In this document: positions 11,775 through 38,257 of the stretch, piece after piece | Layout: each line of letters begins with the position of its first letter | Position numbering within the stretch: position 1 is the first letter of the stretch | NCBI RefSeq assembly: GCF_988242995.1 | Contig: NZ_OZ547043.1 | DNA length: 64,000 nucleotides | Reading direction: 5' to 3' (one strand) | The notes under the pieces: generated by a model | Seen by the model: the letters and a program-made list of their open reading frames with translations, nothing else | What the model was told of the DNA's origin: nothing | Databases searched by the model: none | Translations under genes and position numbers: made by a program

Positions 11775-14700
11775 ATGACCACTGTGAATAAAAAGTTAAA
11801 AAAAACTGCATCTGGCGCGATTACATGGTCAGTAATTGTTACCCAGATATTATCTCCAGTTTCTCTTTCTTTGATTCCGGCAAACAGTTTTGCATCGTCT
11901 GATAATAAAGATGTTACGCAAATTTATGCTAGCGATGAGCGTGCAAATAAAGTGGCCTCATTTGCAGTAAGTGCAGGTCAGAGTCTGGCGAATAATAATG
12001 CAAGTAGTTTTGCTGTAAATACTTTATCAACTCAGGCGACAAAAGAGGTCGTCGATTGGTTGCAACAATATGGCAATGCGCGCATCAAGCTTAATGTCGA
12101 TGATTCTTTTTCCTTGAAGGATTCATCATTCGACTTTTTATATCCATGGCTGGATACTCAGGATTATGTGCTATTCAGTCAGACATCACTACATCGTACT
12201 GATGACCGTAATCAGACCAATATTGGTTTGGGGATTCGTCATTTCACTCCTGATAATGCAATGTTGGGTGCGAATGTTTTCTACGATTATGATTTAAGTC
12301 GCAGCCACTCTCGCGCAGGTTTTGGGGTTGAGTACTGGAGAGATTATTTCAGGTTTGGTGTAAATACCTATTTTGGTTTATCTGACTGGAAGGACAGTCG
12401 GGATATTGATGATTATCTGGAAAGACCCGCAAATGGCTGGGATTTTTCTGCTGAAGGATGGCTACCTGCTTATCCGCAATTAGGGGCATCTATTCAGTTT
12501 GAAAAATATTATGGTAAAAATGTCGGATTATTTGGAAGCGATAATCTGCAGGAAAACCCTTACGCAGTTACTGGGGGAATTTCTTATACACCAGTTCCTC
12601 TGATTAAGTTTTCTGCACAGCATAAGCAAGGACAGAGCAACGTTCACGATACAACCTTTGGTGTTGAGTTTAATTACCGCCCAGGCGTTTCCCTTGCTGA
12701 ACAGCTTAGCAGTGACAATGTTGCAGTTATGCGAGAAGTCCAGAACCGGCGTTATGATTTTGTTGAACGAAATAACAACATTGTTCTGGAGTACAAGAAG
12801 AAGCATGCACTGAAAATCAGCTTACCAGAGTCTGTTCAGGGGGATGGCGAATCAATCATCCCTGTAACACTGACAATCAACAATGCCAGTGGTGGTATCA
12901 AGTCTGTACAGTGGAATGATAGTGTATTCACTGCGGCTGGCGGTAAGATCAGTGGAAATGGCACATCATGGCAGGTCACTTTACCGGCTTATAAAAGCGA
13001 AGGTGTAAATTCGTGGAATGTTGGAGCCACGGTCCAGGATAATAGAGGCAACGTTTCCAACTATGCGGTGATGAATATTAGCGTTATTAATAGTGGTGTC
13101 TCGACAGCGGATTCTTCTTTTATGTTGGATGGAGATTCATCTCCGACGATCTCTGCTGATGGTCAATCCACTCATCCAATAGTATTAAGCCTGAAAGACA
13201 GTAACGGTAAGGCATTAACCGGACTGGCTGATGACATTGAAATGTCAGTGGAATTTACTGCGGATAGCAATAGTGCTCGACAGCGTGAAACGGTAACTGC
13301 CCCGTCATTAGGCGCGGTAGAGGAAATCTCTGCTGGTGTATATCGCTCTGTTCTGACTGCTGGTTCGCAGGCTGGCACAGTACGTGTAACAGCAAAAGTT
13401 CAGGGAAAAACCTTTACTTTGAATATTAAGCAGGCAGCCGTTATTGATAGTGATGTCTCGACAGCGGATTCTTCTTTTACGTTGGATGGTGATTCGTCTC
13501 CGACGATCTCTGCTGATGGTCAATCCACTCATCCAATAGTATTAAGCCTGAAAGACAGTAACGGTAAGGCATTAACCGGACTGGCTGATGACATTGAAAT
13601 GTCAGTGGAATTTACTGCGGATAGCAATAATGCTCGACAGCGTGAAACGGTAACTGCCCCGTCATTAGGCGCGGTAGAGGAAATCTCTGCTGGTGTATAT
13701 CGCTCTGTTCTGACTGCTGGTTCGCAGGCTGGTACGGTACGTGTAACTGCAAAAGTAATGGATAAAACATTTACTCTCAGTATTAAGCAAACAGCAGCAA
13801 CAGAACCTGATTCTGAGGTCAGTGCTGTTTTAACCGCTGCACCAGCAGAACAGGTAGTTGGTTACAATATCAATCTACAACTGGCAGTGAAGGATTCACA
13901 AGGAAATGCAATCACTGGTGATAACACTCTGAGCTTTTATGCTCTTAACCAGGCAGAAGGAGTCGAGTTTGGGGCAGTAACGGAAAAAGACGGTGTCTAT
14001 AGCGCGACAGTAACTTCAAAACGAGCTGGTAAGATTCGGATCGGTGTTAAATCGGGTAGTCACAATTTCTCAGGTATTGAGAAAGAAATCTCCTTTATTG
14101 AAGATCGAACACAGTTCGCATTCTCTCGTATTGAAGCCAGTAAAAATAATGCATTGGCTGACGGCAAACAAAAGAATACGGTGACTGTAAGCCTTGCAGA
14201 TCGTTTCGGCAATGTTGTGCCCGGTTATGCTGTTACGCTGTCCTTACCTGCGGGGGTAACTCAAGTTGGTGGTGAACATGCTGTGTCAACTGACGAAAAC
14301 GGTAATGCTGTTTTTGCGTTAATAAGCTCCACTCCGGGTTCTTACGTGATTAAAGCTCATGCTGGTTCTCAGATGTCTACTGAGTTAACAGTAACCTTTG
14401 CATCAAATATGATCGGAGCTTCACTGTCACTGACGCCTGGAAACAGTAGCTTAATTTCCAATATTCCTGCTAATGGTAAGGATGCTGCGGTATTGAATGT
14501 GCAACTGACAAATACGAATGCGTCGGTCAATGGACAGAAGATTCAGCTCATCACCTCATCTGAAGGATTGTCTGTACCGACAAATATCGTGACTGATTCA
14601 ACAGGGCATGTTTCCGTACCACTTACAACGGTGAGAGCTGGTGAGTATACGGTGGCTGCACGAGTGACTGACGGTTCCCATAGTGTGGAGTCTGGCAGCG

Positions 14701-15683
14701 TTAAGTTAACTTTTGTACCAGATGCTGCTTCCGCAGAACTTACTATGAGTACATCAAAACAGCAGATTGTGGCCGATGGTAGTGAAAGTGCAACAGTGGA
14801 CATTCAGTTGGTTGATGCCAATAACAATGCGTTTACAGGCGATGTGGATTTAACGGTTACACCATCGACGGGAGCATCATTGACCAGTAGTAAACTGCAG
14901 TTGGATGCTCATGGACAGGCAACAACGCAGTTCACAGCATCGAAATCAGGCCAGTACACAATTCAGGCTGAGTATGTTCTAGATGGGAAACGTATAACCG
15001 CAAGCAAAAATATTGATGCCGTGACGGATGTGAAGGAGGCTGTGTTGGAGATCACATCATCTGCATCTTCGGCTGTAGTGAGCGATACCAACAATCTGAT
15101 ATTTACGTTACTGTTGAAAAGTACGTCAGGCGAAGTATTAAGTGGTCGAGTATTGAATATCAAGGCATCTGGGCCGTCCAAATATGGTGCGTTGGTGGTT
15201 GATAAAACCACTGTAACGACTGATGAGTATGGTCTGGCTACGGTAAGCGTACATGGTCGAACGGCTGGTTCGTATAAATTAACGGCGACCTTAGATGAAC
15301 TTGGCAGTGATGTTAGTGAGGTGAAGTCATTCTCTCTGTATGCTGATGAGGCAAATGGAGTATTGACACTGCATAAAGATGGAGGCTATGACACAGATGA
15401 TGGTACTCCAGTGGGGGTTTATGCCCGATTTGTTGACCATTTCGGCAATCCGTTATCTGGTACGGTTGAGTTTTCTGCTGGTAGTGAAGATAGTCCAAAC
15501 TCTCAACTGGTTAAAATGGAGCCTGCTACAGTAACGTTACACTGGACAGGTAATGCAGCCTCGGAGTTCAGCACCTATGAAAGCGGTTATCACTGGATTA
15601 AGGCCAAAATAACGAACAGCAAAAATACATATGAGAAAACAATAAGGACTTATGTTGTAAAGCTCCCTGAAAAGGATAGTTAA
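11775..15683 (+). CDS. Inverse-autotransporter (intimin/invasin-family) adhesin with repeated Ig-like domains
   Basis: 1302-aa ORF: long signal peptide, beta-barrel-like N-terminal region, then many Big-type repeats; AT-rich upstream region. Confidence 0.75.
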   Translation: MTTVNKKLKKTASGAITWSVIVTQILSPVSLSLIPANSFASSDNKDVTQIYASDERANKVASFAVSAGQSLANNNASSFAVNTLSTQATKEVVDWLQQYGNARIKLNVDDSFSLKDSSFDFLYPWLDTQDYVLFSQTSLHRTDDRNQTNIGLGIRHFTPDNAMLGANVFYDYDLSRSHSRAGFGVEYWRDYFRFGVNTYFGLSDWKDSRDIDDYLERPANGWDFSAEGWLPAYPQLGASIQFEKYYGKNVGLFGSDNLQENPYAVTGGISYTPVPLIKFSAQHKQGQSNVHDTTFGVEFNYRPGVSLAEQLSSDNVAVMREVQNRRYDFVERNNNIVLEYKKKHALKISLPESVQGDGESIIPVTLTINNASGGIKSVQWNDSVFTAAGGKISGNGTSWQVTLPAYKSEGVNSWNVGATVQDNRGNVSNYAVMNISVINSGVSTADSSFMLDGDSSPTISADGQSTHPIVLSLKDSNGKALTGLADDIEMSVEFTADSNSARQRETVTAPSLGAVEEISAGVYRSVLTAGSQAGTVRVTAKVQGKTFTLNIKQAAVIDSDVSTADSSFTLDGDSSPTISADGQSTHPIVLSLKDSNGKALTGLADDIEMSVEFTADSNNARQRETVTAPSLGAVEEISAGVYRSVLTAGSQAGTVRVTAKVMDKTFTLSIKQTAATEPDSEVSAVLTAAPAEQVVGYNINLQLAVKDSQGNAITGDNTLSFYALNQAEGVEFGAVTEKDGVYSATVTSKRAGKIRIGVKSGSHNFSGIEKEISFIEDRTQFAFSRIEASKNNALADGKQKNTVTVSLADRFGNVVPGYAVTLSLPAGVTQVGGEHAVSTDENGNAVFALISSTPGSYVIKAHAGSQMSTELTVTFASNMIGASLSLTPGNSSLISNIPANGKDAAVLNVQLTNTNASVNGQKIQLITSSEGLSVPTNIVTDSTGHVSVPLTTVRAGEYTVAARVTDGSHSVESGSVKLTFVPDAASAELTMSTSKQQIVADGSESATVDIQLVDANNNAFTGDVDLTVTPSTGASLTSSKLQLDAHGQATTQFTASKSGQYTIQAEYVLDGKRITASKNIDAVTDVKEAVLEITSSASSAVVSDTNNLIFTLLLKSTSGEVLSGRVLNIKASGPSKYGALVVDKTTVTTDEYGLATVSVHGRTAGSYKLTATLDELGSDVSEVKSFSLYADEANGVLTLHKDGGYDTDDGTPVGVYARFVDHFGNPLSGTVEFSAGSEDSPNSQLVKMEPATVTLHWTGNAASEFSTYESGYHWIKAKITNSKNTYEKTIRTYVVKLPEKDS
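13083..13796. repeat. Near-perfect tandem duplication (2 x 357 bp) inside the adhesin gene
   Basis: 13083-13439 and 13440-13796 differ at only a few positions; each encodes one 119-aa Ig-like repeat. Confidence 0.9.
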
Positions 15684-17471: not shown

Positions 17472-17849
17472 ATGCGTGATATTCAGATGGTTCTTGAGCG
17501 TTGGGGAGCGTGGGCGGCTAATAATCATGAAGATGTGACCTGGTCGTCCATTGCCGCCGGTTTTAAGGGATTAATTCCTTCAAAAGTAAAATCTCGCCCA
17601 CAATGTTGTGACGATGACGCGATGATCATTTGCGGGTGCATGGCCCGTCTGAAAAAGAACAACAGCGATTTGCATGATTTATTGGTGGACTATTATGTCG
17701 GCGGCATGACTTTTATGGCGCTTGCACGTAAGCATGGGCGATCTGATTGTTGGGTTGGCAGGATGCTCCAGAAAGCTGAGGGCGTAGTGGAGGGTATGCT
17801 GATGGTATTGGATCTCCGATTGGAGATGGATGCTGATTGTTCGAAATAA
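17472..17849 (+). CDS. quuD: Late-gene antiterminator Q
   Basis: ATG at 17472 with [33 protein letters not shown]... matches DLP12 QuuD. Confidence 0.85.
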
Positions 17850-17947
17850 TTAAAGGAAAAGTTGCTGTCTGATTCTCATTAGTCTAACATTTTAAATGTT
17901 GGAATCGCAACGTAGTTATTATCATATAACAGCTTGTTTCCTGATTT

Positions 17948-17977
17948 AGCCAGCCTCCCCAAAGGCTGGTTTTTTTC
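17948..17977 (+). terminator. Candidate tR'-like terminator downstream of Q
   Basis: GCCAGCCT-CCCCAA-AGGCTGG hairpin followed by TTTTTTT. Confidence 0.5.
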
Positions 17978-18004
17978 TAATAAGTATTATATCGGGTAGG
18001 GATT

Positions 18005-18529
18005 TTATTGTTTAACCCATAATAATTCATTGACATTGAATCCCAACTTTTGAGCGGTTCGCACATAGTCTGCTTTTACTTTATCTGGAATAGTTGGGGT
18101 CCTTGCCAGAATCCATAGGTATTCTCTGTTCGGACCACTGACAAGAGCATACTTATACTCATCATCCAGTTTGATTACATTATAGCCACCATAGAAGGGG
18201 CCAAAAAACGAAACCTTCAACGCTGCAGTTTTAGTATCTCCAGTAAAGTATGCTTTACCTTCGCTCTCGCTCCATTTATTTTTCGTTGGATCGTATCCAC
18301 GGTTAAGTACACGAATCCCTCCGTCGTTCCGTTTTCCATAAGTAGCGCTGACCTGTTCCAGACCACGTTCGAACCGGTTCTCGAGGCGAGCTATTTCATA
18401 CCACTTTCCGAGGTAGCGGTTGGCGTCAAAATTTGTAATCGGCTGCACACCTTTAGGTGGTGTCGGGGCCTTACATGCTATAAGAGTGAAAGAGAGTGCA
18501 ATGCCAGTCAACACAGGCCATAACTTCAT
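18005..18529 (-). CDS. Blc-like outer-membrane lipocalin lipoprotein
   Basis: 174-aa ORF with lipobox (LIAC) and lipocalin motifs (NFDANRYLGKWYEIARL, KVSFFGPFYGGYNVI) closely resembling E. coli Blc. Confidence 0.8.
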   Translation of the reverse strand: MKLWPVLTGIALSFTLIACKAPTPPKGVQPITNFDANRYLGKWYEIARLENRFERGLEQVSATYGKRNDGGIRVLNRGYDPTKNKWSESEGKAYFTGDTKTAALKVSFFGPFYGGYNVIKLDDEYKYALVSGPNREYLWILARTPTIPDKVKADYVRTAQKLGFNVNELLWVKQ

Positions 18530-18721
18530 AATAAATCCTGTACTTTTGATAGTTGAGAGTAAGTATGAAAGATAGATGATTACGACCGATCACTTAAAGA
18601 ACTTTCATACTATATTAGGAATAGTCCATAACAGAAAAATTGTCAGTGATGACGCCAGAAAGGCAATTTATTCCGTGCACTACACAGTTTATGTGTTAAT
18701 GAATTAGTCAAGGGGGAGGAT

Positions 18722-19681
18722 ATGATAAAAAAACCTGTGATTGGAATCAGCGGTTGTCTGGCCGGTTCTGCTGTTCGTTTTGATGGTGGTCACAAAAGAG
18801 CTGACTTTTTAATGGACAAATTAGTGGAATGGGTAACATTCAGACCAGTATGTCCGGAAATGGCTATAGGGCTGCCAGTTCCGCGTCCTGCTCTACGTCT
18901 TGTGCGCTCGACGCAAGGAAATATACGGATGTGTTTCAGCCACGACCAGAATGAGGATGTGACAGAGAGAATGACAGAGTTTAGTCGTTCTTATATGGAC
19001 AAATTAAAGGATGTATCGGGGTTTGTGGTTTGTGCTAAATCTCCCAGCTGTGGCATGGAGCGCGTGCGTGTCTATGATGAAAATGGTAATCGAGGTCGTA
19101 AAGATGGAGTGGGACTATTTACGAGCACTTTGATGGAAAAGTTTTCCTGGCTACCGGTTGAAGAGGATGGGCGATTACATGATCCAGTGCTTCGTGAGAA
19201 TTTTGTTGAAAGAGTTTTTGCTTTGCATGAGCTCAATCACCTTTACAAGGAGAAATTATCAAGAAGAGAGTTATTAGCTTTTCATAGTCGTTATAAGCTT
19301 CAGTTGTTGGCGCATAGTCAGGCAGGCTATAAAGATATGGGACCATTTGTGGCTGCAATACACGAGTGGGCGGACCTTGAATCATACTTTGAGGTGTATC
19401 GTGATAAGCTGATGGCGATTCTCAGAAAACCTGCATCACGTAAAAATCACACGAATGTGCTGATGCATATACAGGGGTATTTTAGTAACTACTTAAGTAC
19501 ACGCCAGCGTAAAGAGTTGAGCGAGGTTATACTTAACTATCGTTCTGGCACATTACCTCTTCTTGCGCCGTTGACTCTGCTGAAGCATTATCTGGGTGAG
19601 TATCCTAATGATTACTTGCTTACACAGAATTACTTCGATCCCTATCCGGACGAACTGGCTCTAAGACTGATGGTAAATTAA
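18722..19681 (+). CDS. DUF523 (Cys-rich) / DUF1722 (YbgA-like) fusion protein
   Basis: 319-aa ORF with strong RBS AGGGGGAGGA; Cys-rich N-terminal half and YbgA-like C-terminal half (domain assignment from memory). Confidence 0.65.
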   Translation: MIKKPVIGISGCLAGSAVRFDGGHKRADFLMDKLVEWVTFRPVCPEMAIGLPVPRPALRLVRSTQGNIRMCFSHDQNEDVTERMTEFSRSYMDKLKDVSGFVVCAKSPSCGMERVRVYDENGNRGRKDGVGLFTSTLMEKFSWLPVEEDGRLHDPVLRENFVERVFALHELNHLYKEKLSRRELLAFHSRYKLQLLAHSQAGYKDMGPFVAAIHEWADLESYFEVYRDKLMAILRKPASRKNHTNVLMHIQGYFSNYLSTRQRKELSEVILNYRSGTLPLLAPLTLLKHYLGEYPNDYLLTQNYFDPYPDELALRLMVN

Positions 19682-20032
19682 TTGTATGCGATATCATCCA
19701 AAAGGATGAGTTCCTGCATGCAGGATATTTACAATCGTAAAAACTACACTATGATACCCAGAGTGTCAGTTTGTATAAAAACTCTGTTTACGCTGAAGAA
19801 ACCATTGAGATGCAACTTAAAGTTGGTAAACATGCCAGTCAAAATATATAATATTATGATTCCACGCAGCTATATATAATATAACAGATTGGTTTAATAA
19901 TTTGTCTTTGTGAGTTAAATACATAATTTTATACTTGTGATGCAATGAGATTTTCCTTATTGTTGAACTGGCGAATATTGATTTTCCACCTATACTTACC
20001 TGGTGTAACCCCAATGATATCAGGTGGATAAT

Positions 20033-20764
20033 ATGCCATACATATGTTCTATCATTTTGGTGTTGAACTCGTTTGATGTCCGAATTGGTAAAGAAGATAT
20101 TTTATTTAAAAAAGGAAGTGCTGTTCTCATTGATTACAATTTAAAAGATTTTTTTTCATCAAATATAGATCATGCAATGATCGTAGATGTTGAAGAGAAA
20201 ACAGTTAATGATTTCTTTAAAAGCAACACACTCTCACCTTTTTCTGTAAGAAGGTTTTATCCGGCATACTTGATGGTGGAATGTGAAGATTTTTCATTGT
20301 TAAAGAACTTGATTGCATGCTTGAATTGTGATGGCAGAACTGTGGATTTTGTTAGAAATCAAATATCACTTGCATGTCTTGCTATCTTATCTTCAGAGAA
20401 AATAGTGCAAAGTTTTTTATTTGGATGTCTTAATAGTTTAGGAAGTAAAGTTAAGGCTATTATTCACACGGATATATCTGCAGCATGGAGACTTTGTGAT
20501 ATATCTTCAAGACTGTATCTGAGTGAAAGTCTGTTAAAAAGAAAATTAAAGCACGAAGGCTTATCATTTAGTAAGTTAATTCTTGAAGAGCGAATGGTGA
20601 TGGCGGAAAGGTTATTAAGCTACAATTTATATTCTGTTGGAAAAGTTGCTGAGATATGCGGTTATGAAAACACGTCATATTTTGTAAGTGTTTTCAGAAG
20701 ATATTTTGGTGTTCCTCCCCATCAATATTCATCAAGACTTTTTTTAGAAAAAGACATGATGTAA
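20033..20764 (+). CDS. AraC/XylS-family transcriptional regulator (AppY-like)
   Basis: C-terminal AraC HTH (VAEICGYENTSYFVSVFRRYFGVPP); N-terminus parallels AppY; ORF-track start at 20024 is GTG, ATG at 20033 preferred. Confidence 0.75.
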   Translation: MPYICSIILVLNSFDVRIGKEDILFKKGSAVLIDYNLKDFFSSNIDHAMIVDVEEKTVNDFFKSNTLSPFSVRRFYPAYLMVECEDFSLLKNLIACLNCDGRTVDFVRNQISLACLAILSSEKIVQSFLFGCLNSLGSKVKAIIHTDISAAWRLCDISSRLYLSESLLKRKLKHEGLSFSKLILEERMVMAERLLSYNLYSVGKVAEICGYENTSYFVSVFRRYFGVPPHQYSSRLFLEKDMM

Positions 20765-20825
20765 CGTGATGCGTTTTAATGATTTTGTAATTTTCGTATT
20801 TGATAATTGTATGATGCTTTCAGCT

Positions 20826-20857
20826 ACGCCAGAATAATCGCTGGCGTTTTTCTTTTT
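20826..20857 (+). terminator. Rho-independent terminator after the AraC-like gene
   Basis: ACGCCAG-AATAATCG-CTGGCGT hairpin followed by TTTTTCTTTTT. Confidence 0.5.
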
Positions 20858-20952
20858 GAATAGATGTTCAAGCCTTACGCTAATGTAACTTCTATACCTT
20901 TCCTCTTCGTTCCGAACCGTGTACACCATCCGTTATTTGCGGAGGTGAGGCT

Positions 20953-21168
20953 ATGAAATCCATGGATAAGTTAACAACGGGCATTGCCTACGGCACCTCC
21001 GCAGGCAGTGCTGGCTACTGGTTTTTACAGCTGCTCGATAAAGTCACGCCCTCACAGTGGGCAGCAATAGGTGTGCTGGGTAGCTTGGTATTTGGCTTGC
21101 TGACGTACCTGACAAACCTTTATTTCAAGATTAAAGAAGATAAGCGCAAGGCTGCGAGAGGTGAATAA
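20953..21168 (+). CDS. essD: Holin
   Basis: 71-aa membrane protein at the head of the lysis cassette. Confidence 0.8.
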
Positions 21169-22154: not shown

Positions 22155-22448
22155 TTATTGTGAGCAATAGACACGCGCTTCCAGCGGAGTATAAATGCCT
22201 AAAGTAATAAAACCGAGCAATCCATTTACGAATGTTTGCTGGGTTTCTGTTTTAACAACATTTTCTGCGCCGCCACAAATTTTGGCTGCATCAACAGTTT
22301 TCTCCTGTCCAATTCCCGAAACGAAGAAATGATGGGTGATGGTTTCCTTTGGTGTTACTGCTGTCGGTTTGTTTCCAACAGTAAACGTCTGTTGAGCACA
22401 TCCTGTAATAAGCATTGCCAGAGCGGCAGAAAACAACATTTTTTTCAT
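22155..22448 (-). CDS. borD: Bor lipoprotein (serum-resistance type)
   Basis: 97 aa from MKKMLFSAALAMLITGCA...; internal start of the 113-aa ORF. Confidence 0.85.
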   Translation of the reverse strand: MKKMLFSAALAMLITGCAQQTFTVGNKPTAVTPKETITHHFFVSGIGQEKTVDAAKICGGAENVVKTETQQTFVNGLLGFITLGIYTPLEARVYCSQ

Positions 22449-22895
22449 CTTATTATCCTGCATTGTTAAAAACGGCAGAATCCTATGTGACAACAATTAA
22501 ACGATAGTTAAATGGATTGATGAAAATTAAAACTATATAGGTGTGCGCTCAGACTATTGGAGGAAGTTGGGGACACTCAGAATCCTGTGGAATGAAATAA
22601 ACCGGTCTATCCGTCTATTACCCTTTTAGCTGCGCTGTATCGTCGCCGTATTCCCGCATTAACCATGACCGTAGCCCGACGGGGAATTCCTTCTGCGTGA
22701 GTGTGCGGGAATAATCAAAAACGATGCACACCGGGTTTTTACCGCGTTTATGGTTAGCGGGGGTGTCCCTCATGCTCGCCAGTCCTGTGCGGGGGTGGAA
22801 GAAACAGGACGTGTATTCAGGTCTGTGTGACTGTGGTCGCAAGACTTTTGTCGTTCAGCTATTAAATCCCATTACGAAGTAGACCAGAACGGCCA

Positions 22896-29060: not shown

Positions 29061-29315
29061 ATGTCGATGTACACAACCGCCCAGCTGCTGGCGGCAAATG
29101 AGCAGAAATTTAAGTTTGATCCGCTGTTTCTGCGTCTCTTTTTCCGTGAGAGCTATCCCTTCACCACGGAGAAAGTCTATCTCTCACAAATTCCGGGGCT
29201 GGTAAACATGGCGCTGTACGTTTCGCCGATTGTTTCCGGTGAGGTTATCCGCTCCCGTGGCGGCTCCACCTCTGAATTTACGCCGGGATATGTCAAGCCG
29301 AAGCACTTAGCATGA
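29061..29315 (+). pseudogene. E: Major capsid gene E, 5' fragment (codons 1-84) truncated by the satellite insertion
   Basis: MSMYTTAQLLAANEQKFKFDPLF...GYVKPKH then two foreign codons and stop; the rest of E resumes at 40394. Confidence 0.9.
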
Positions 29316-29468
29316 CTTTCTGAGGCTTTCGTGTAGTTGCTGGTTTTTACACTTAATCTTTTGATAATAAAGAATAAGTTTATCTGGTGCTTTCACTGAA
29401 TTTTCCTCGTTATCTGTGTGTTGCAATCATCTCTGTATTGCAGCTTGTATTGCTTTTTGGGGCTAAAA

Positions 29469-30704
29469 ATGGCTGGCGAGAACAAACTGAGCGACAAAGC
29501 GCTTAAAGGATATCTGGGGAAACCCAGAGAAAAGCAGATCACCATTGCTGATGGAAAGGGGCTTTCTATTCGTGTGAGTACTAAAGGGGCTGTGAGCTTT
29601 GTTTTCTTCTACAGGTTAGCAGGTGGCCGGGCTGCTCCGGTCTGGCTAACGTTGGGTAAATATCCTGATATGTCACTCAAACAGGCAAGGGAAAAGCGCG
29701 ACGAGTGCCGTGGTTGGTTGGCTGACAAACGTGATCCGCGTATCCAGATTAAGATTCAGGCTGAAGAACGCTTAAAGCCGGTTACAGTGGAGGATGCACT
29801 AAATTACTGGTATGAAAATTACTGTAAGGTGCGTCGTAAAACTCATGCTGTAACGCTTGGCAGATTTCGAAAGCATATCTTTCCCTATATCGGTCATTTG
29901 CCCGTAAATGACACTCACCTATATGAATGGCTGGACTGTTTTGACCGAATTAAACGTAATGCACCAGTTATGGCGGCGTATGTTTTTTCTGACACTAAAT
30001 TAGCTCTTCGTTTTTGTCGGGTACGCCAGTACGCGACGTGTGATGCTTTAAAGGATTTGCGCATGAGTGATGTGGGGCAGATTGCAGGTAAGCGGGATCG
30101 GGTTCTGGATGAAGCCGAACTCGGCCAGCTCTGGAAGGCAATTTTTGTCGAGCCTGATTTAAAACTAATGTCTGAATACACGCGAAAAATGTTTGTGCTT
30201 TGTACAGTATTTGGATGTCGAATGAGTGAAGCCCGATTATCAGAATGGAGCGAATGGGATCTCGAAAGTTGGGTTTGGACTGTACCAAAAGATCACTCAA
30301 AAACTGGTGTTGAAATCGTCAGACCAGTACCTGAAATTCTACGACAGTGGGTAACGGATGTTCACGAAGAGACAAAACATACTGGTTATGTGCTGGGAAG
30401 TCTGCGAATTAGAGAAAGCGTAAGCAAGATTGGGGGGAAAATCGGTAAACGTTTGGGCCATGAAAAACAATGGTCACTACACGACCTTAGAAGAACGCTA
30501 TCTACTCATCTAAGTGATCTCGGTGTTGAATTTTATGTAGTAGAACAACTGTTAGGCCATGCGCTACCTGGCGTGGCAGGTGTTTACAACCGGAGTAAGT
30601 TTATGGCTAAAAAACTGGATGCTCTGGAACTCTGGACTACATATCTCAATAGCATCGCAGCTGCTGATTCAAAAGTGACAATCCTCAAACAAAAGGTTGG
30701 TTAA
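29469..30704 (+). CDS. Satellite tyrosine integrase (P4-type)
   Basis: From MAGENKLSDKALKGYLG...; catalytic region HDLRRT...LLGH...VYNRS; located at the element's left end. Confidence 0.85.
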   Translation: MAGENKLSDKALKGYLGKPREKQITIADGKGLSIRVSTKGAVSFVFFYRLAGGRAAPVWLTLGKYPDMSLKQAREKRDECRGWLADKRDPRIQIKIQAEERLKPVTVEDALNYWYENYCKVRRKTHAVTLGRFRKHIFPYIGHLPVNDTHLYEWLDCFDRIKRNAPVMAAYVFSDTKLALRFCRVRQYATCDALKDLRMSDVGQIAGKRDRVLDEAELGQLWKAIFVEPDLKLMSEYTRKMFVLCTVFGCRMSEARLSEWSEWDLESWVWTVPKDHSKTGVEIVRPVPEILRQWVTDVHEETKHTGYVLGSLRIRESVSKIGGKIGKRLGHEKQWSLHDLRRTLSTHLSDLGVEFYVVEQLLGHALPGVAGVYNRSKFMAKKLDALELWTTYLNSIAAADSKVTILKQKVG

Positions 30705-30705
30705 C

Positions 30706-30933
30706 ATGAAAAAAATGGCAATTGTTGATAAAAAGGGTCTGGAGTACATTCCTAACATTGACCGAATGATCCGTGAGAAAGAATGTCGGGAGCTAACCAC
30801 TCTTGCGAACAGCACACGCTGGAAGCTGGAGAAGGAAGGAAAATTTCCTAAGCGGATCAAGATTGGTTCCACTGCTGTTGCATATCGTCTTTCAGAAGTG
30901 CAGGCATGGATTCGAGGTGAGTGGGTAGTTTAA
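30706..30933 (+). CDS. alpA: AlpA-family HTH regulator/excisionase
   Basis: 75-aa ORF directly after int; the ORF-track start at 30697 is TTG, ATG at 30706 preferred. Confidence 0.7.
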   Translation: MKKMAIVDKKGLEYIPNIDRMIREKECRELTTLANSTRWKLEKEGKFPKRIKIGSTAVAYRLSEVQAWIRGEWVV

Positions 30934-31002
30934 ATTATCTCAGAATAAAATATTATGAATTACTGATTTGAGAATTTGTACTCAAATCAGTAATAACATT
31001 CT

Positions 31003-31539
31003 TTATAAGAGATTAAATCCAAATAAAGAGTAATCATATACCGGGGTGCATTGCATCCCACTGAATATGCTGATGTTTTTTTCTGTTTCTATCCTTTTTT
31101 CAATAAGTTGTTGTATATTTTTACAGTACAATTTGTGTGTGATGTTATTATCGTAAGCCTGATATAGCAACGTCAATGTTGATGCTATGAAACATGCAGA
31201 AAGAAAATGAACTAGTACATGTGAGCGTTTTTTGGTTGTCCATGATGCATTCGCTTGTGAAATATAAATCATTCTGAGAATGATAATGATGATAGACAGT
31301 AACAGACCACTCAATAAAATAAGTATTGGGTTTGCGTATTTAATTAATGGTTGAGAGCAAAAAACTATTATAGCTCCTGTGACTGCGTATGAGAAAAAGG
31401 AGTAATTAAACTTCTTACTCCTTCTCTCAAGTATTTTAATTTCATCTTGTGTGGGGGTTTTAGATGCCTCTAATATAAGTTTATTAAATGTTTCTGTTAT
31501 CTTGTTTTTTGTGTTTGTGGCTATTTTTTTTAGATTCAT
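31003..31539 (-). CDS. Hypothetical AT-rich membrane protein (2-3 predicted TM helices)
   Basis: 178-aa ORF with hydrophobic segments AVTGAIIVFCSQPLI and ILILLSGLLLSIIIIIL; convergent with alpA. Confidence 0.5.
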   Translation of the reverse strand: MNLKKIATNTKNKITETFNKLILEASKTPTQDEIKILERRSKKFNYSFFSYAVTGAIIVFCSQPLIKYANPILILLSGLLLSIIIIILRMIYISQANASWTTKKRSHVLVHFLSACFIASTLTLLYQAYDNNITHKLYCKNIQQLIEKRIETEKNISIFSGMQCTPVYDYSLFGFNLL

Positions 31540-31889
31540 AGCATTCTAACTCCCTTAACTTATTTATTACTTTCTCTTTATGATAAGAGAGGGGAATGAC
31601 TTGGTAAAGTGATTTGTCATTAATAATGATAATCCTTGCGATAAATATTTCTGCAAGTTATTTACCTGTTTGTTGCTATCTTGTTAAGCGTTGGGTGTGG
31701 TTTATGTTTGGAGCGACTTTATTTAATCGTGATTTTATGGATTTATATTTATATCCTGTAAGATAAGCGCATGTTAGTTCAGGAGTAGTGTCAGATAAAA
31801 TTATTCGGAGTAGAACTACCTTTTCTGTTTATTGCCAGTATTTACATAGCAATGCGCCGTAGTTACTCACATCACGGCGCTGATACTAA

Positions 31890-32195
31890 TTATTCAGATT
31901 CTTTGGCTTTACGCCGCTGGAGTTCTTCACGAGCGACGGCTACGAGTTGCCCGATTTCCTCCGCTGCCTTGATACCGATTTGTTCGACCTTAGCTAAGGC
32001 ATCCAGTGAAGACACGAGGGGATTTTCTCCGCTTCCTTCTGCCTGGCGGCGGGCGATTTCACCGCGCATGGCGGTTACGATAAATCCGGCATTGCTTTCA
32101 CCGTCCAGCTTAACGGATTCCATCCCTTGCATAACATCTAGTGGGACTCTGACAGTTGTCAGTTGTGATTTTGCGTTTTTGTTAGCCGTTGCCAT
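31890..32195 (-). CDS. Putative ribbon-helix-helix regulator (candidate satellite repressor)
   Basis: 101-aa ORF; TVRVPLDVMQGMESVKLDGESNAGFIVTAMRGEIARR fits a beta-strand/helix/G-x-S/helix RHH pattern; divergent from the primase operon. Confidence 0.4.
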   Translation of the reverse strand: MATANKNAKSQLTTVRVPLDVMQGMESVKLDGESNAGFIVTAMRGEIARRQAEGSGENPLVSSLDALAKVEQIGIKAAEEIGQLVAVAREELQRRKAKESE

Positions 32196-32256
32196 TTCTG
32201 AAACTCCTAATCATCGGTGTGTTTCAGTATACACAAAAAAAGAAATACAAAAAGCC

Positions 32257-32292
32257 TTGACGTGTGTTTCATGCGCTCATAACATGAAACAC
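32257..32292 (+). promoter_or_regulatory. Promoter (TTGACG-17 nt-TAACAT) overlapped by a palindromic operator
   Basis: Inverted repeat GTGTTTCATG (32264-32273) / CATGAAACAC (32283-32292) straddles the -10 element. Confidence 0.5.
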
Positions 32293-32385
32293 ACCGAAAG
32301 GATTGTTGAAATACAAAGAGCAACGCCCCGCAGTGCTGGGAACACATACGGGGCGTCTAACCAACAACGTAAACTAGGAGCCGTT

Positions 32386-32583
32386 ATGGTTGCTGTAAAT
32401 CATATACCACACCTTGTACACACACAAACGGCCTTTGTGTGGCGTTTTCTGGCACTGAGTGCCGGAGAATCTCAAATCATCCACGTAACCGCCTGGACGG
32501 AACGCGAAGCGCGTAGCCGTTGCCCGTCCGGTTGTGTTGCTGTATTCGCTGCAAAAATCCGCCAGGGAGTGAGTCATGCTTAA
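32386..32583 (+). CDS. Small hypothetical protein, first gene of the satellite rightward operon
   Basis: 65-aa ORF with AGGAG RBS 5 nt upstream of ATG 32386; the longer ORF-track frame from 31852 is rejected. Confidence 0.45.
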   Translation: MVAVNHIPHLVHTQTAFVWRFLALSAGESQIIHVTAWTEREARSRCPSGCVAVFAAKIRQGVSHA

Positions 32584-32761
32584 AACCTTCCGTGTATTTG
32601 CCCGAGCTGTTAACCCAATAGGCCACACAATTGGTATCGCTCAGAATGTGAAGGCTGTTAATGTTCAGACGGCTATTGCTGCGGTGAGAAGCGAATCATC
32701 AGAATATGGCTTATCACAAGTCATTATTTCAGCAGTGTATGAATTAAAAGAGGTGCATTAA
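32576..32761 (+). CDS. Small hypothetical protein
   Basis: 61-aa ORF; start overlaps the preceding stop (ATGCTTAA). Confidence 0.35.
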   Translation: MLKTFRVFARAVNPIGHTIGIAQNVKAVNVQTAIAAVRSESSEYGLSQVIISAVYELKEVH

Positions 32762-32952
32762 TGCAGGAAATCACATTACACGAAGCCGCTGAACGTGCGC
32801 ACCAGACAGAAATTATTTGCCGCCTTCTTGAGGTATATCCGAACAAAATTACAGATGCTGATATATCCGCGCTGGCGAGCCTACTGGCGCGCCTTTCGGG
32901 AAGTGTCGCTAGTTTCCTCATTGAGGAAGAAAGTAAGCTGGTGGGGGATTAA
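32761..32952 (+). CDS. Small hypothetical protein
   Basis: 63-aa ORF translationally coupled to neighbours. Confidence 0.35.
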   Translation: MQEITLHEAAERAHQTEIICRLLEVYPNKITDADISALASLLARLSGSVASFLIEEESKLVGD

Positions 32953-33174
32953 ATGAATACAGAACGGGAAGTCTTTTTTAAATTGTTAGCATGTGCAGAA
33001 AGTTCATTAACTTTAAATAATTCAGCAAAAGCAATATTAAATATGTGGCTTGATTGCATAAATGACAATGAAGATGCAAATATTGCTTATGGCCTGTTGT
33101 CACTTATTGATGAATCAGCAGAAAAACTCAATGACGCAATAAATAGTGCCCTGCTATCAAATAAGTCGAGTTAA
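32953..33174 (+). CDS. Small hypothetical protein
   Basis: 73-aa ORF, AT-rich. Confidence 0.35.
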   Translation: MNTEREVFFKLLACAESSLTLNNSAKAILNMWLDCINDNEDANIAYGLLSLIDESAEKLNDAINSALLSNKSS

Positions 33175-33191
33175 GTCGAGGAATAAATAAT

Positions 33192-33491
33192 ATGGAAATG
33201 AAAAATTCTGGCTTTATTGCCAGCGGCCCCGCTCGGCCTGAATTTATGAACGGCGATATTTACCGCGATAAATACGGCGGCACGGTAACGATTAAAGGCG
33301 TGGCAGAACGGCGCATCACTTACCGCCGTGAGGGGTATAGCTATGACTGCGTGATGCCTGTTTATCAGTTCCGGCGTGATTTTTCCCTGGTATATGCCGC
33401 ACCCCGCAGTAAGCCCATCAGCAGGGAAAAAGCGCGGGGAAACATCCAGAAAATGAAAAGCATGATTAACGCATTCAGGGGCAAAAAATGA
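33192..33491 (+). CDS. Hypothetical protein
   Basis: 99-aa ORF ending at the primase start. Confidence 0.4.
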   Translation: MEMKNSGFIASGPARPEFMNGDIYRDKYGGTVTIKGVAERRITYRREGYSYDCVMPVYQFRRDFSLVYAAPRSKPISREKARGNIQKMKSMINAFRGKK

Positions 33492-35239
33492 AACTGGCAC
33501 CGAACTTAAAAAAACAGCCACGCGACAGACTGACAGAGGTAATCATCTTTGCAGGTAGTGATGCGTGGAGCCATGCGAAAGAGTGGCGGGAATGGGCGGG
33601 TAAACATATTGCCGCCGACGATGTGCCGCCTGTCGTGCTGGCTGATGAGCAACTGAAAAATATCACCGATTACCGGATCATTGATGAAGATCGTCAGTGT
33701 GTGCGTGTTTACCGCGCAGGACATATCACAGAGCACAGCATGACGCAGATTGTTACGTTACTGGCTGTGGCTGGAGTGAAGACCGTACACGAATACGCGG
33801 GGATTACTGACACCAGCCCAGTGGATTTATCCGAGCAGTTGCCGCGACTCAAAGAGGAATGCGAGCGTGGGGAAAGTCTGGTGCTTAATCTTCCGACGAA
33901 GCAAAAGGCGCAACTTTCACAGATGGCAGACAGTGAACGTGCACAACTACTTGCCGATCGCTTTGATGGTGTGTGTGTTCATGCAGAAAGTGAAATCGTC
34001 CACGTATGGCGCGGCGGGGTATGGTGTCCGGTCAGCACAATGGAGCTGAGCCGCGAAATGGTGGCGATCTATTCAGAGCACAGGGCCACGTTCAGCAAAC
34101 GTGTAATCAATAACGCCGTGGAAGCGTTAAAAGTTATTGCCGACCCCATGGGGGAGCCGTCCGGTGATTTGCTACCGTTCACTAATGGTGTGCTTAACCT
34201 GAAAACGGGGGAATTTTCTCCGCACTCGCCGGAGCACTGGAGCACCACGCACAATGGCATTGAGTACACGCCACCAGTAGCAGGGGAAAACATCCGCGAT
34301 AATGCGCCAAATTTCCATAAATGGCTTGAACATGCTGCAAGAAAAGACCCGCGCAAGATGATGCGTATATGTGCCGCGTTATACATGATTATGGCGAACC
34401 GCTACGACTGGCAGATGTTCATTGAGGCCACCGGAGACGGGGGAAGCGGTAAGAGTACATTTACCCATATTGCCACCCTGCTTGCTGGCAAACAGAACAC
34501 CGTAAGCGCGGAGATGACATCACTCGATGATGCAGGAGGGCGCGCGCAGGTTGTCGGGAGTCGTCTTATCGTCCTTGCCGATCAGCCGAAATATACGGGG
34601 GAAGGCACGGGCATCAAGAAAATCACGGGAGGCGATCCCGTTGAAATTAACCCGAAATATGAGAAGCGATTCACGACGATAATAAGGGCGGTGGTACTGG
34701 CAACCAATAACGACCCGATGATCTTTACCGAACGGGCCGGAGGTGTGTCACGCCGTCGGGTGATTTTCCGGTTCGACAACATTGTAAGGGAGGACGAAAA
34801 AGACAAGGAATTACCGGAAAAGATAGCGGCAGAAATCCCCGTAATTATCCGCCGCTTGCTGGCTAATTTTGCTGACCCTGAAAAGGCACGGGCTTTATTA
34901 CTGGAACAGCGTGACGGTGATGAAGCTCTGGCAATAAAGCAGCAAACGGATCCGGTTGTTGAGCTTTGCGCGGCGCTGGAGTTTCTGGAGGAAGCTCGTG
35001 GGCTAATGATGGGCGGTGGTGGTGACACCGTGAAGTACACGACCAGAAACAGCCTTTACCGTGTCTATATGGCCTTCATGGCATACACAGGAAAGGGGAA
35101 ATGTTTGAGCGTGAATGAGTTCGGAAAGGCTATGAGGTCAGCGGCGAAAGTTTACGGATATGAATATATTACGCGAAAAGTTAAGGGAGTCACGCAGACC
35201 AACGCAACGACTACTGATGATTGCGATGCGTTTTTATAA
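33488..35239 (+). CDS. Primase/SF3-helicase replication protein
   Basis: 583-aa ORF with Walker A (TGDGGSGKST) in the C-terminal half and primase-like N-terminal half; followed by iterons. Confidence 0.8.
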   Translation: MKLAPNLKKQPRDRLTEVIIFAGSDAWSHAKEWREWAGKHIAADDVPPVVLADEQLKNITDYRIIDEDRQCVRVYRAGHITEHSMTQIVTLLAVAGVKTVHEYAGITDTSPVDLSEQLPRLKEECERGESLVLNLPTKQKAQLSQMADSERAQLLADRFDGVCVHAESEIVHVWRGGVWCPVSTMELSREMVAIYSEHRATFSKRVINNAVEALKVIADPMGEPSGDLLPFTNGVLNLKTGEFSPHSPEHWSTTHNGIEYTPPVAGENIRDNAPNFHKWLEHAARKDPRKMMRICAALYMIMANRYDWQMFIEATGDGGSGKSTFTHIATLLAGKQNTVSAEMTSLDDAGGRAQVVGSRLIVLADQPKYTGEGTGIKKITGGDPVEINPKYEKRFTTIIRAVVLATNNDPMIFTERAGGVSRRRVIFRFDNIVREDEKDKELPEKIAAEIPVIIRRLLANFADPEKARALLLEQRDGDEALAIKQQTDPVVELCAALEFLEEARGLMMGGGGDTVKYTTRNSLYRVYMAFMAYTGKGKCLSVNEFGKAMRSAAKVYGYEYITRKVKGVTQTNATTTDDCDAFL

Positions 35240-35252
35240 AAAATGGCAATGG

Positions 35253-35482
35253 TTATCTACCTTGTCTACCTGACTGAAAGAAAATACTTTTATTTCAATG
35301 TATTAATGCAGGTAGATAACTATTTTTCACTGTCTACCTGTTATCTACCTTATCTACCCATTTTTGTAGACAGGTAAGGAGACGGGTAGAGATGAGGTAG
35401 ACAGCTATTTGGGGCTGTCTACCTCCCTGAAACCCGCGCCATTACTGGCCTGATAACTAATCAGGTAGACAAGGTAGACAAG
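35253..35482. repeat. Satellite replication origin iterons (at least 10 copies of GGTAGACA/TGTCTACC in both orientations)
   Basis: Dense cluster of the 8-bp core in a 230-bp non-coding stretch just 3' of the primase gene. Confidence 0.75.
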
Positions 35483-35528
35483 GTGGTGGTGCACAAAAAA
35501 CTTTTTAAACGAGGGGGTAAAAATAAAA

Positions 35529-35786
35529 ATGCACACATCAGGAAAACTGAACAAACATATAAAGCCACATTACCGCGCCCTTGATATGGCTGAACACTGG
35601 CTAAGGGTGGCGATTAAGGCAATAGACCGCAACGCCGGGGAAGGATACGCGAAAGCACATCCCGAACTGATAAGCGCATTCATGACAACGGCGGCTGCAA
35701 ACTTTGCCACGCTGACCGAACGGGAGATTGCTGAAGCGGAGGAAGTGACAACAATCAATATTAAGTCCGGAGAGCAGGCAGCATGA
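35529..35786 (+). CDS. Hypothetical protein
   Basis: 85-aa ORF upstream of and coupled to ssb. Confidence 0.4.
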   Translation: MHTSGKLNKHIKPHYRALDMAEHWLRVAIKAIDRNAGEGYAKAHPELISAFMTTAAANFATLTEREIAEAEEVTTINIKSGEQAA

Positions 35787-36232
35787 CGGCGCAAATATCA
35801 GTTTACGGGCGGTTGGTGGACGACCCGCAGACAAAACAGACCAGCAAGGGCACCCCCATGACGCTGGCGCGTATGGCGGTATCACTGCCCTGCAGTCAGT
35901 CGGATGACGGTCTGGCGACGTTGTGGTTATCTGTCCTGGCGTTTGGCAGACAAGCCGACGCGCTGGCAAAGCATCACAAAGGCGAACTCCTGAGCGTGGC
36001 GGGTAACATGCAGATGAGCCAGTGGACTGGACAGAACGGCGAAACGCGGCAGGGCTGGCAGGTTATCGCAGACAGCGTAATCAGTGCGCGATCGGTGCGA
36101 CCGGGCGGCAAAAAAGGCCAACAGGGGCAGGCTACTGACGCACTGAACAGAGCAAAACAACAGGCAGATCAGCAAGGAAGCCAGCCACCAGAGGGAGATA
36201 ATGAGCAATGGGGAGATGATATCCCGTTTTAA
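35783..36232 (+). CDS. ssb: Single-stranded DNA-binding protein
   Basis: 149-aa ORF with Gly/Gln-rich linker and acidic C-terminal tail ending DDIPF. Confidence 0.8.
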   Translation: MTAQISVYGRLVDDPQTKQTSKGTPMTLARMAVSLPCSQSDDGLATLWLSVLAFGRQADALAKHHKGELLSVAGNMQMSQWTGQNGETRQGWQVIADSVISARSVRPGGKKGQQGQATDALNRAKQQADQQGSQPPEGDNEQWGDDIPF

Positions 36233-36448
36233 ATATTGCCAATAAAAAAAGCCGGAAAAAATAAATTTTCCGGCATGCTACATAAATCCCGACCAAAGGG
36301 AGTGAAGATATTAACACTAATTGTCCGCACTGAAGTTGTCACCCCAAAACTTTATACAACATTGCACTCGGTTGCATGTGTTCGCATGACAAATATCGGT
36401 GATAGCATATATCCACAATTATTTTTAATGAATGCAAAGAGGATGCGT

Positions 36449-37489: not shown

Positions 37490-37498
37490 GGGGGAGCA

Positions 37499-37840
37499 AT
37501 GGCTACTCATTACACTGAACTCATGGCTGGCACTGAAGCACTGGTGACTACGCTGGGGATATTTTCAGCTAATAAAGGGGTAATTCCTGCATTTACGCCA
37601 CTGATGCAGGAAGATGCAACAGGTGCACTGGTGGTATGGGATGGTTCGAGCGTAGGTAAAGCGGTTTATGTTTCCGCTGTACAAATCGACACCGCGAAAA
37701 AAACACAGGCTCAGGTCTATAAGACAGGTGTCTTAAATGTTGATGCTCTGAACTGGCCTGAGTCTGTTAAAGAACTGTCAGTAAAGGTTGCAGCGTTTGT
37801 TGGCTCAGGTATTTCTGTTCAGCCGCTGGCTCGTGTGTAA
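37499..37840 (+). CDS. Satellite-encoded head decoration protein homologue (lambda D-like)
   Basis: 113-aa ORF; TPLMQEDATGALVVWDGSSVGKAV...VYKTG parallels lambda [22 protein letters not shown]...FYKSG. Confidence 0.7.
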   Translation: MATHYTELMAGTEALVTTLGIFSANKGVIPAFTPLMQEDATGALVVWDGSSVGKAVYVSAVQIDTAKKTQAQVYKTGVLNVDALNWPESVKELSVKVAAFVGSGISVQPLARV

Positions 37841-37851
37841 AGGGGGATACA

Positions 37852-38235: not shown

Positions 38236-38257
38236 TGAAATTAGGGCCCGCTCTGGC

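Follow-up and report, generated by a model that had tools for sequence, protein, structure and literature searches.

Gene content and location of the block

The window analyzed here, a stretch of 64,000 nucleotides from contig NZ_OZ547043.1 (NCBI RefSeq assembly GCF_988242995.1), includes a DLP12-like lambdoid prophage, integrated at argU, where a 3.1 kb block of cargo sequence (17832-20937) separates the antiterminator gene Q from the holin gene. Three genes are present in the block: a lipocalin gene on the minus strand, then, on the plus strand, rudS, encoding a predicted tRNA 4-thiouridine (s4U) desulfidase, and a gene for a regulator of the AraC/XylS family. Their positions are reported in Table 1, along with those of the flanking genes and of the main signals. 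A previous reading, made from the sequence alone, had described three genes in this order and orientation, and the list of open reading frames (ORFs) shows all three, intact, where that reading placed them.

Table 1. Features of the block and of its immediate flanks
Feature	Position	Strand	Evidence
Antiterminator Q, 125 aa, left backbone gene	17472..17849	+	PHROG 79 'anti-termination protein Q-like', E 1e-51; RefSeq
Leader next to Q, with a tR'-like intrinsic terminator at its end	17850..17977	+	Stem 17948-17971 and T-run; dG -14.9 kcal/mol, z -3.4
Blc-subfamily outer-membrane lipocalin lipoprotein (predicted), 174 aa	18005..18529	-	NCBIfam NF007786, PDB Blc matches
Divergent intergenic region, lipocalin/rudS	18530..18721	.	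Strong Shine-Dalgarno sequence (GGAGG) ahead of rudS
RudS (predicted), TudS-type [4Fe-4S] desulfidase fused to a DUF1722 tRNA-binding domain, 319 aa	18722..19681	+	Pfam, identity to RudS_vir
AT-rich spacer, rudS-regulator	19682..20032	+	Promoter-like TTTACA-16-TATGAT at 19728-19755, scan score 10/12
AraC/XylS regulator, GadW/YdeO/AppY/PatE-like subgroup, 243 aa	20033..20764	+	Family models, pairwise identities
Intrinsic-terminator-like hairpin and T-run closing the block	20826..20852	+	Scan; dG -12.1 kcal/mol
Holin (EssD-type), 71 aa, first lysis-cassette gene, right backbone gene	20953..21168	+	PHROG holin families; RefSeq 'essD'
(aa, amino acids; dG, folding free energy; z, z-score.)

The prophage is an intact relative of DLP12, the cryptic prophage of K-12. 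The tRNA-Arg UCU gene argU (2814-2890) is the single tRNA detected by a scan of the window, none being located in the slot. The two prophages have in common the segments ybcN-ninE-ybcO-rusA-ylcG-Q and essD-rrrD-rzpD-bor. Homology to DLP12 ends at 17831, within the last codons of Q, and restarts at 20938; homology to phage ev243 ends at the same position and restarts at 20942. The corresponding interval is occupied in DLP12 by nmpC, a porin gene read from the minus strand, and in ev243 by an OmpC-type porin; OmpC/OmpD-type porins are found in the Q-S (antiterminator-holin) slot of ev243, mEp332 and the PhiR phages, as the sequence-only reading had anticipated for related prophages. In Stx phages the slot is occupied by the stx genes. 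Comparison of the slot among relatives, a check suggested by the same reading, returned breakpoints (17831 and 20938-20942) nearly equal to the limits it had proposed, and the whole block recurs in phages.

The block is a discrete 3.1 kb replacement in this classical cargo slot, where it takes the place of nmpC. It shares insertion slot and backbone breakpoints with the known Q-S morons (nmpC in DLP12, the porins of ev243 and mEp332) and, as with nmpC, its first cargo gene lies on the minus strand; unlike porin or toxin morons, which consist of one porin or toxin operon, it includes three genes, apparently of two origins. In architecture it is an ordinary moron: an insert flanked by backbone genes, absent from close relatives, with an atypical G+C content (30-46%, against 47-55% in the flanks), for which a terminator and a promoter of its own are supported at the consensus level. 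G+C content is about 43% (41-46%) for lipocalin and rudS, and about 31% (30-33%) for the regulator gene, while the backbone ranges around 47-53%.

Prevalence and selection

Prevalence was evaluated over 5426 complete E. coli genomes. The whole Q-to-holin stretch, at a coverage of 80% or above, is present in 978 of them; rudS is found in 1135 (about 21%; 1063 at 80% coverage or above) and the regulator gene in 1033 (992 at the same coverage). In roughly 85 genomes rudS lacks the usual Q/S flanks. About 18-21% of complete E. coli genomes carry the block, at several different chromosomal positions. Misassembly, the flaw that the sequence-only reading had held out against itself, is ruled out by the presence of the stretch in these 978 genomes and in sequenced phages: it is found at 98% in IdasGreatGrand and at 90% in 1H12 and in ten Lambda_ev/2E9-type (infant-gut lambda) records. 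The rudS allele of the window is the commoner E. coli type, with 596 genomes at 99% identity or above, compared with 110 in the 90-95% class.

Ratios of non-synonymous to synonymous substitution rates, calculated between window and phage 1H12, are 0.06 for the lipocalin, 0.10 for rudS and 0.28 for the regulator, indicating purifying selection on all three genes in the phage setting. At the protein level the regulator is 82% identical to its 1H12 counterpart, against 93-97% for lipocalin and RudS.

The RudS protein

Two Pfam domains are found in the middle protein: PF04463 (TudS/DUF523, residues 7-149, E 1.6e-39) and PF08349 (DUF1722, residues 192-309, E 2.2e-40). Residues C10 and C43 in the sequence of the TudS structure 6Z92 align to its C12 and C44. 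The protein is 93.4% identical to RudS_vir (gp66, H3V29_gp66) of phage 1H12; Cys12, Cys44 and Cys110 are present in both, and are invariant in the alignment of homologues. Among 14 homologues E46, R55, S107, S109 and C110 are invariant, and the first four match Glu51, Arg60, Ser111 and Ser113 of RudS_KT by their offset from the Cys ligands, not by direct alignment. By these features the middle gene is identified as rudS.

The fusion was named RudS in 2024 (Jamontas et al., NAR, PMC11417400), and described as a [4Fe-4S] enzyme which strips sulfur from tRNA 4-thiouridine, the first bacterial eraser of this tRNA modification. When RudS is overexpressed in E. coli, the s4U content of tRNA falls and the growth delay induced by ultraviolet A (UVA) is reduced; rudS genes are found in light-responsive operons (PMC11417400). 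RudS_vir is one of the six enzymes assayed, and lowers tRNA s4U on overexpression; its phage context, its neighbouring genes and its biological role are not covered by that study (PMC11417400). RudS_vir and the window protein have the same two domains, the same length of 319 aa and the same flanking genes (Q, lipocalin, AraC regulator, holin), and differ by 21 amino acids. On two points, the sequence-only reading has to be amended: the "DUF523/DUF1722 fusion" is RudS, with a 93%-identical phage copy already tested, and the label "Cys-rich" is overstated for a protein with only five cysteines.

According to the same study, E. coli is without RudS, and has instead YbgA, a DUF1722-only protein without the catalytic TudS domain, by which s4U is left unchanged (PMC11417400). 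YbgA, encoded in the E. coli ybgA-phr pair, is 49% identical over 152 aa to the C-terminal half of the window RudS. The modified base itself, s4U8, is a near-ultraviolet (near-UV) chromophore and sensor: its crosslink to C13 blocks aminoacylation, leading to growth delay and to accumulation of guanosine tetraphosphate (ppGpp).

Three further rudS loci may be mentioned. In E. coli BL21 (NZ_CP053601.1, 1558651-1558797) the first 147 bp of the gene remain, annotated as '2-thiouracil desulfurase family protein'. A database protein of 403 aa (P0046), in which a GGDEF domain is joined to 92% of RudS, occurs on one contig and could be due to an artefact or to a rearrangement. In Citrobacter braakii a cluster of nine genes ends with rudS, the preceding ones being SnoaL-like, SDR, amine oxidase, DUF1365, cyclopropane-fatty-acid synthase-like, DUF2878, unknown and DUF3833; this lipid-modifying context again ties RudS to membrane-lipid chemistry.

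The lipocalin

The minus-strand protein scores 316 bits against NCBIfam model NF007786 (cut-off 267), covering positions 1-174 of 176, and matches the PDB structures of Blc, 3MBT and 1QWD, with E about 1e-68; it belongs to the same subfamily as Blc (PDB 1QWD, 2ACO, 3MBT). Its N-terminus, MKLWPVLTGIALSFTLIAC-K, contains the lipobox LIAC with Cys19, followed by a residue other than Asp at +2, and sorting to the outer membrane is predicted from these two features. The protein is 60% identical to K-12 Blc and 77-80% identical to the lipocalins linked to rudS in Serratia, Enterobacter and Buttiauxella: it is a distinct paralogue, to which these are closer than the ampC-linked chromosomal blc is. 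The window lipocalin is the phage gene that Mathieu et al. (2020, PMC6969025) listed as the moron 'blc', present in over half of the lambda phages from the infant gut. The experimental test of RudS_vir and the listing of blc as a lambda moron, both from near-identical phages, are what was already known of the block.

The AraC/XylS regulator

The RefSeq start of the third gene is the ATG at 20033, an alternative GTG being available at 20024 (246 aa). The domains PF12833 and PF00165 are recorded on its cluster representative (P0032, 98% identical), and the DNA-binding domain of GadX (3MKL) matches residues 136-235 with E 3e-20. The best NCBIfam model, YdeO (NF007407), gives 126 bits, below its cut-off of 348. 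Pairwise identities are 53% (over 235 aa) to ECs_0287 of the Sakai strain, 34% to GadW, 32% to YdeO and 31% to AppY. ECs_0287, also of the AraC type, is encoded at the right end of the O157 thrW prophage Sp1 and, by map position and without an accession match, is probably PatE (z0321, OI-8).

The regulator is similar in family and size to PatE, PsrA/PsrB, AppY, YdeO, GadW and GadX; as with PatE, PsrA/PsrB and AppY, its gene is AT-rich and belongs to a lambdoid prophage. The similarities listed above extend over the full length, yet none of these acid-resistance regulators is its orthologue, and its gene lies in the Q-S slot, not at a prophage end. AppY, PatE and PsrB activate the gadE/hdeAB (AR2) acid-resistance system, and this regulon is, by family membership, the most probable set of targets for the window protein as well.

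"AppY-like", the term chosen by the sequence-only reading, is too specific: orthology to AppY is excluded by the 31% identity and by the true appY, located elsewhere in the window (58690-59439), at the right end of the prophage, and identical to the K-12 protein at 248 of 249 positions. It is followed by two ORFs (59689-60642 and 61155-61916) in the positions of ompT and envY of DLP12. The same prophage has, as a result, two AraC-type regulators of the acid-resistance group.

In phages ev099 and PhiR70_1 homologues (52% identity) occur by themselves, elsewhere in the genome. Acquisition of the regulator gene seems to have been separate from that of the pair formed by lipocalin and rudS, as suggested by these lone homologues, by its lower G+C content, by its faster divergence and by the presence of a promoter-like site and a terminator of its own.

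Chromosomal counterparts of the lipocalin-rudS pair

A survey of chromosomes, with one genome per species, identified 80 RudS loci in Enterobacterales. In clade 1, where RudS is 54-63% identical to the phage enzyme, rudS lies directly upstream of the photolyase gene phr in more than 50 species; these rudS-phr operons are the full-length counterpart of E. coli ybgA-phr, and represent the other main context of RudS, supporting a link with light and UV. Clade 2 (66-76% identical) includes the phage enzyme. Here a fixed gene order is found: a lipocalin of 174 aa on the minus strand, a MerR/MlrA-like regulator of 241 aa on the plus strand, and rudS on the plus strand. This cassette is present in seven Enterobacter species, in Phytobacter, in Buttiauxella agrestis and in Serratia rubidaea, with lipocalins 72-80% and RudS proteins 69-75% identical to those of the phage.

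The two structural genes of the chromosomal cassette recur in the phage pair, again divergently oriented. Traces of the cassette are also recognized in the spacer: the motif TTCATACTATATTAGGAATA, conserved in the chromosomal lipocalin-merR spacers, is kept in the window (about 18604-18623), and in the alignment the lipocalin-proximal motif is TTCgTAgTATATTgaGAATA in chromosomes and TTCaTAcTATATTagGAATA in the window. Unlike the cassette, the phage pair has neither the merR gene nor the dyad conserved upstream of chromosomal rudS (AAACTTGGACAAAT-N-TTTGTGTAAGTTTT), and is placed in a phage late-operon slot: no merR remnant was found in the phage by tblastn with the Serratia MerR, and no match to the dyad by a mismatch-tolerant search of the window. 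The simplest reading is that the pair is a captured chromosomal cassette which has lost its dedicated regulation. Its collinearity with the chromosomal lipocalin<>merR-rudS cassette, merR and operator having been lost, is new here. Two other candidate signs of the operator were discarded: the MAFFT alignment of the regions upstream of rudS is unconvincing for the phage rows, and the likeness of 18676-18700 to collapsed half-sites, with an AAATTG inverted repeat, is too weak to be used.

Lipocalin and rudS are also linked in other arrangements: the order is rudS-phr-lipocalin in Enterobacillus tribolii, and a co-directional rudS-lipocalin tandem, with the genes 25 bp apart, is present in a Proteus-type prophage (L153). 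Given such recurrent linkage, the two proteins are likely to be functionally connected, in a way that we infer below.

Repeated entry of rudS into lambdoid phages

A scan of IMG/VR returned 60 viral RudS loci, falling into three groups. The first, at 93-100% identity, corresponds to the E. coli block, where rudS shares the Q-S slot with lipocalin and regulator. The second (57-59% identity) is formed by Providencia/Proteus prophages, where rudS starts 265 bp after Q: one of its loci (L140), with the order NinG-Q-rudS-small ORF-cold-shock protein-...-holin-endolysin-Rz, matches a Providencia rettgeri locus at 94.6% identity over 5 kb, while the Proteus-type locus with the tandem is 97% identical to Proteus penneri. 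The third, with 73% identity, is formed by Salmonella prophages (98% identical to a copy from Salmonella enterica), where rudS is located in the nin region, between the replication genes and dinI-rusA-HNH-Q.

The three phage lineages are mutually 56-73% identical, no closer to each other than to chromosomal enzymes, indicating at least three entries of rudS into lambdoid phages. These separate entries, and the renewed adjacency of a lipocalin in a second lineage, are likewise new here. In the Salmonella enterica loci L008/L009 (4285-6960) the phage-type rudS, 98% identical to the Salmonella prophage copy of IMG/VR, adjoins ttcA, coding for a tRNA-thiolation enzyme, in the vicinity of phage remnants (DUF1367) and of a porin; two genes for tRNA sulfur chemistry are thereby neighbours, but the adjacency is probably a coincidence of the integration site.

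Transcription signals and flanking genes

The leader following Q is presumed to contain the late-promoter site, its pR'/tR' role being suggested by the usual lambdoid architecture. The terminator-like hairpin (17948-17977) begins 99 bp past Q, and the motif TATATAACAG is common to the leaders of the window and of ev243, conservation between the two being otherwise patchy. The plus-strand genes are positioned downstream of Q and of the tR'-like terminator, and, as proposed by the sequence-only reading, a terminator (the hairpin and T-run at 20826-20852) closes the block ahead of the holin; it is perfectly conserved in 1H12 and IdasGreatGrand. The spacer between rudS and regulator (19682-20032) is 66% identical overall to that of 1H12, yet the island with the promoter-like sequence is kept in both phage lineages.

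Directly 3' of the rudS stop a further hairpin is predicted (19682-19727; dG -20.8 kcal/mol, z -4.8). It was rejected as a terminator, because it is not followed by a T-run and has no equivalent in 1H12. Small ORFs at 18576-18707 and 19682-19879, annotated in IdasGreatGrand, are probably spurious: they have no family support and lie within regulatory spacers. Conservation of the spacers above that of coding DNA was considered as a sign of regulatory constraint; spacers are about 90% identical, similar to genes, and the comparison is uninformative. An Rfam search of the slot gave only sub-threshold chance matches.

Among the backbone genes, the Q protein has a distant match to the Q21 structures 6P18/6JNX, and the holin gene is followed by genes for endolysin, Rz/Rz1, a Bor/Iss-like lipoprotein and terminase.

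Proposed function

The preferred interpretation, to which a probability of about 0.6 is assigned, is that of a composite moron, made of a near-UV and stress conversion pair, lipocalin and RudS, and of a separately acquired acid-resistance regulator. The pair would have been captured from an enterobacterial chromosome, with loss of the MerR/MlrA-type regulator gene and of the dyad operator. RudS, through a [4Fe-4S] cluster on Cys12/44/110, would turn s4U8 of host tRNA back to uridine, the DUF1722 domain docking the tRNA; the presumed benefit is that erasure of s4U8 would blunt the UVA-induced arrest of translation. Since E. coli has no RudS of its own, the prophage would add an activity absent from the species. 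The Blc-type lipocalin, predicted to be exported as an outer-membrane lipoprotein, would probably handle damaged lipids or lyso-lipids in the same photo-oxidative response. The regulator, provided with its own promoter-like site and terminator, would most likely feed into the host gadE/hdeAB regulon.

As for expression, the lipocalin gene is antisense to late transcription and so must use its own promoter in the lysogen, while rudS and the regulator gene may be read both from local promoters and, after induction, by Q-antiterminated polymerase passing the tR'-like terminator: such read-through into the plus-strand genes is plausible. The analysis shows what the genes are, their synteny and origin, how common they are and that purifying selection acts on them; the lowering of tRNA s4U by overexpressed RudS_vir comes from the literature; timing of expression, advantage under UVA, role of the lipocalin and targets of the regulator are what we infer in this scheme. 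The "envelope or stress-related conversion module" of the sequence-only reading survives in spirit: for the pair the best-supported stress is near-UV/photo-oxidative, for the regulator it is acid. The trio itself is probably not one co-evolved unit.

A number of points weigh against this interpretation. Desulfidation of tRNA by RudS_vir is below that of other RudS enzymes despite good protein levels, and RudS_vir shows the shortest lag on 4-thiouracil among them (PMC11417400), so that its preferred substrate in vivo may differ. A stress role is assigned to the lipocalin through guilt by association. The regulator is at best 53% identical to its nearest relative, itself tied to PatE by position. 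A consensus scan for the late promoter found sites no more frequently than in shuffled sequences, and no expression data were found for the three genes, in lysogens or after induction. Finally, a gut commensal meets little UVA, and the selective agent may be something else.

Among the alternatives, the one that fares best, although it appears unlikely, regards rudS as mainly a late gene and a helper of the lytic cycle: after induction by UV, Q-dependent transcription would flood irradiated cells with the eraser and lift the near-UV/stringent brake, so that translation of the late proteins could be completed, to the benefit of the phage and not of the lysogen. The location of rudS downstream of Q and of the tR'-like terminator fits with this proposal, as do the loss of the cognate MerR control, the Providencia-type prophages, where no gene intervenes in the 265 bp from Q to rudS, the first ORF, and the Salmonella prophages, where rudS is beside the SOS-linked dinI. 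Yet the Salmonella gene lies in the early nin region, not in the late operon; between Q and rudS of the E. coli block lies the lipocalin gene, in antisense, and the block ends with its own terminator, as is typical of morons expressed in the lysogen.

It is improbable that the trio forms one regulon, where the AraC regulator took over from MerR and controls the divergent lipocalin and rudS promoters, making up a single stress-conversion module, in essence the view of the sequence-only reading. The three genes do occur together nearly always (at 80% coverage or above, rudS is found in 1063 genomes, the regulator in 992 and the whole block in 978) and the cognate MerR regulator is missing; but the regulator differs from the pair in G+C content (about 31%, against about 43%), diverges much faster and has its own promoter-like site and terminator. 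Moreover, its 52%-identity homologues stand alone in ev099 and PhiR70_1, another one is found at the end of the O157 prophage Sp1, and Salmonella and Providencia/Proteus phages have rudS without the regulator. A replacement of MerR by the AraC regulator was accordingly judged unlikely.

Even less credit can be given to a role in salvage or detoxification, in which RudS, like stand-alone TudS, would act chiefly on free 4-thio-uridine monophosphate (4-thio-UMP) or 4-thiouracil derived from tRNA turnover, converting them to UMP or uracil, and not on intact tRNA. The behaviour of RudS_vir, with its short lag on 4-thiouracil and its weaker activity on tRNA in spite of high protein levels (PMC11417400), and the preference of TudS for 4-thio-UMP are what this proposal would explain; the DUF1722 domain, however, is complete and under purifying selection, all RudS variants assayed, RudS_vir included, lowered tRNA s4U, and none matched the support of growth given by TudS (PMC11417400).

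We know of no defence system which depends on s4U, and, at E<=0.01, none of the three proteins matched a PADLOC model. Host takeover or counter-defence, where removal of s4U would alter tRNA stability or recognition, evading a tRNA-targeting nuclease or remodelling the tRNA pool, is hardly credible, with chromosomal homologues in light-response contexts, even if RudS was captured independently in three lambdoid lineages and overexpression of RudS_KT halves some tRNA-Ser and tRNA-Tyr species (PMC11417400).

Other cargo in the prophage

An 11 kb satellite-like element (about 29307-40390) interrupts the major head gene of the prophage, fragments of which are found at about 29061-29306 and 40403-41179. 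Beside a major head protein of its own and a head-decoration protein, it encodes an integrase, a repressor, a primase, a single-strand-binding protein (SSB) and an excisionase-like regulator. It looks like a phage satellite of the capsid-encoding kind, and its presence is expected to knock out the capsid gene of the host prophage. In strain AST215 a related, non-identical element is present at the same head-gene site.

Between the replication gene P and ninB a gene for an inverse-autotransporter (intimin/invasin-like) adhesin of 1302 aa is carried as cargo (11775-15683); within it a segment of about 352 bp is tandemly duplicated (13082-13432 and 13439-13789). After Rz, on the minus strand (22155-22496), lies a gene for a Bor/Iss-type serum-resistance lipoprotein, named 'iss' in the near-identical strain AST215: it is a further lysogenic-conversion gene in the same prophage.

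Implications

The general picture of morons is unchanged by this block. For a species supposedly lacking RudS, what changes is that about one fifth of E. coli strains have acquired the enzyme through a prophage block, and strain differences in tRNA s4U, in UVA growth delay and in the stringent response may depend on prophage content. That lambdoid phages of three genera have repeatedly taken up rudS, one of the other two lineages again with a lipocalin beside it, points to a function on which selection can act, in the phage or in the lysogen.

A broader and quite tentative proposal is that RudS and the Blc-type lipocalin form a portable near-UV protection unit, repeatedly captured, freed from MerR and timed by the phage, so that a UV-induced prophage would erase the s4U8 photosensor and suppress the stringent arrest which throttles late protein synthesis. 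If this were true, a phage-encoded eraser of a tRNA modification would act as a takeover or conversion factor in about one fifth of E. coli strains. The presence of a second AR2-type AraC regulator, beside appY, bears on the wiring of acid resistance in both commensals and pathogens.

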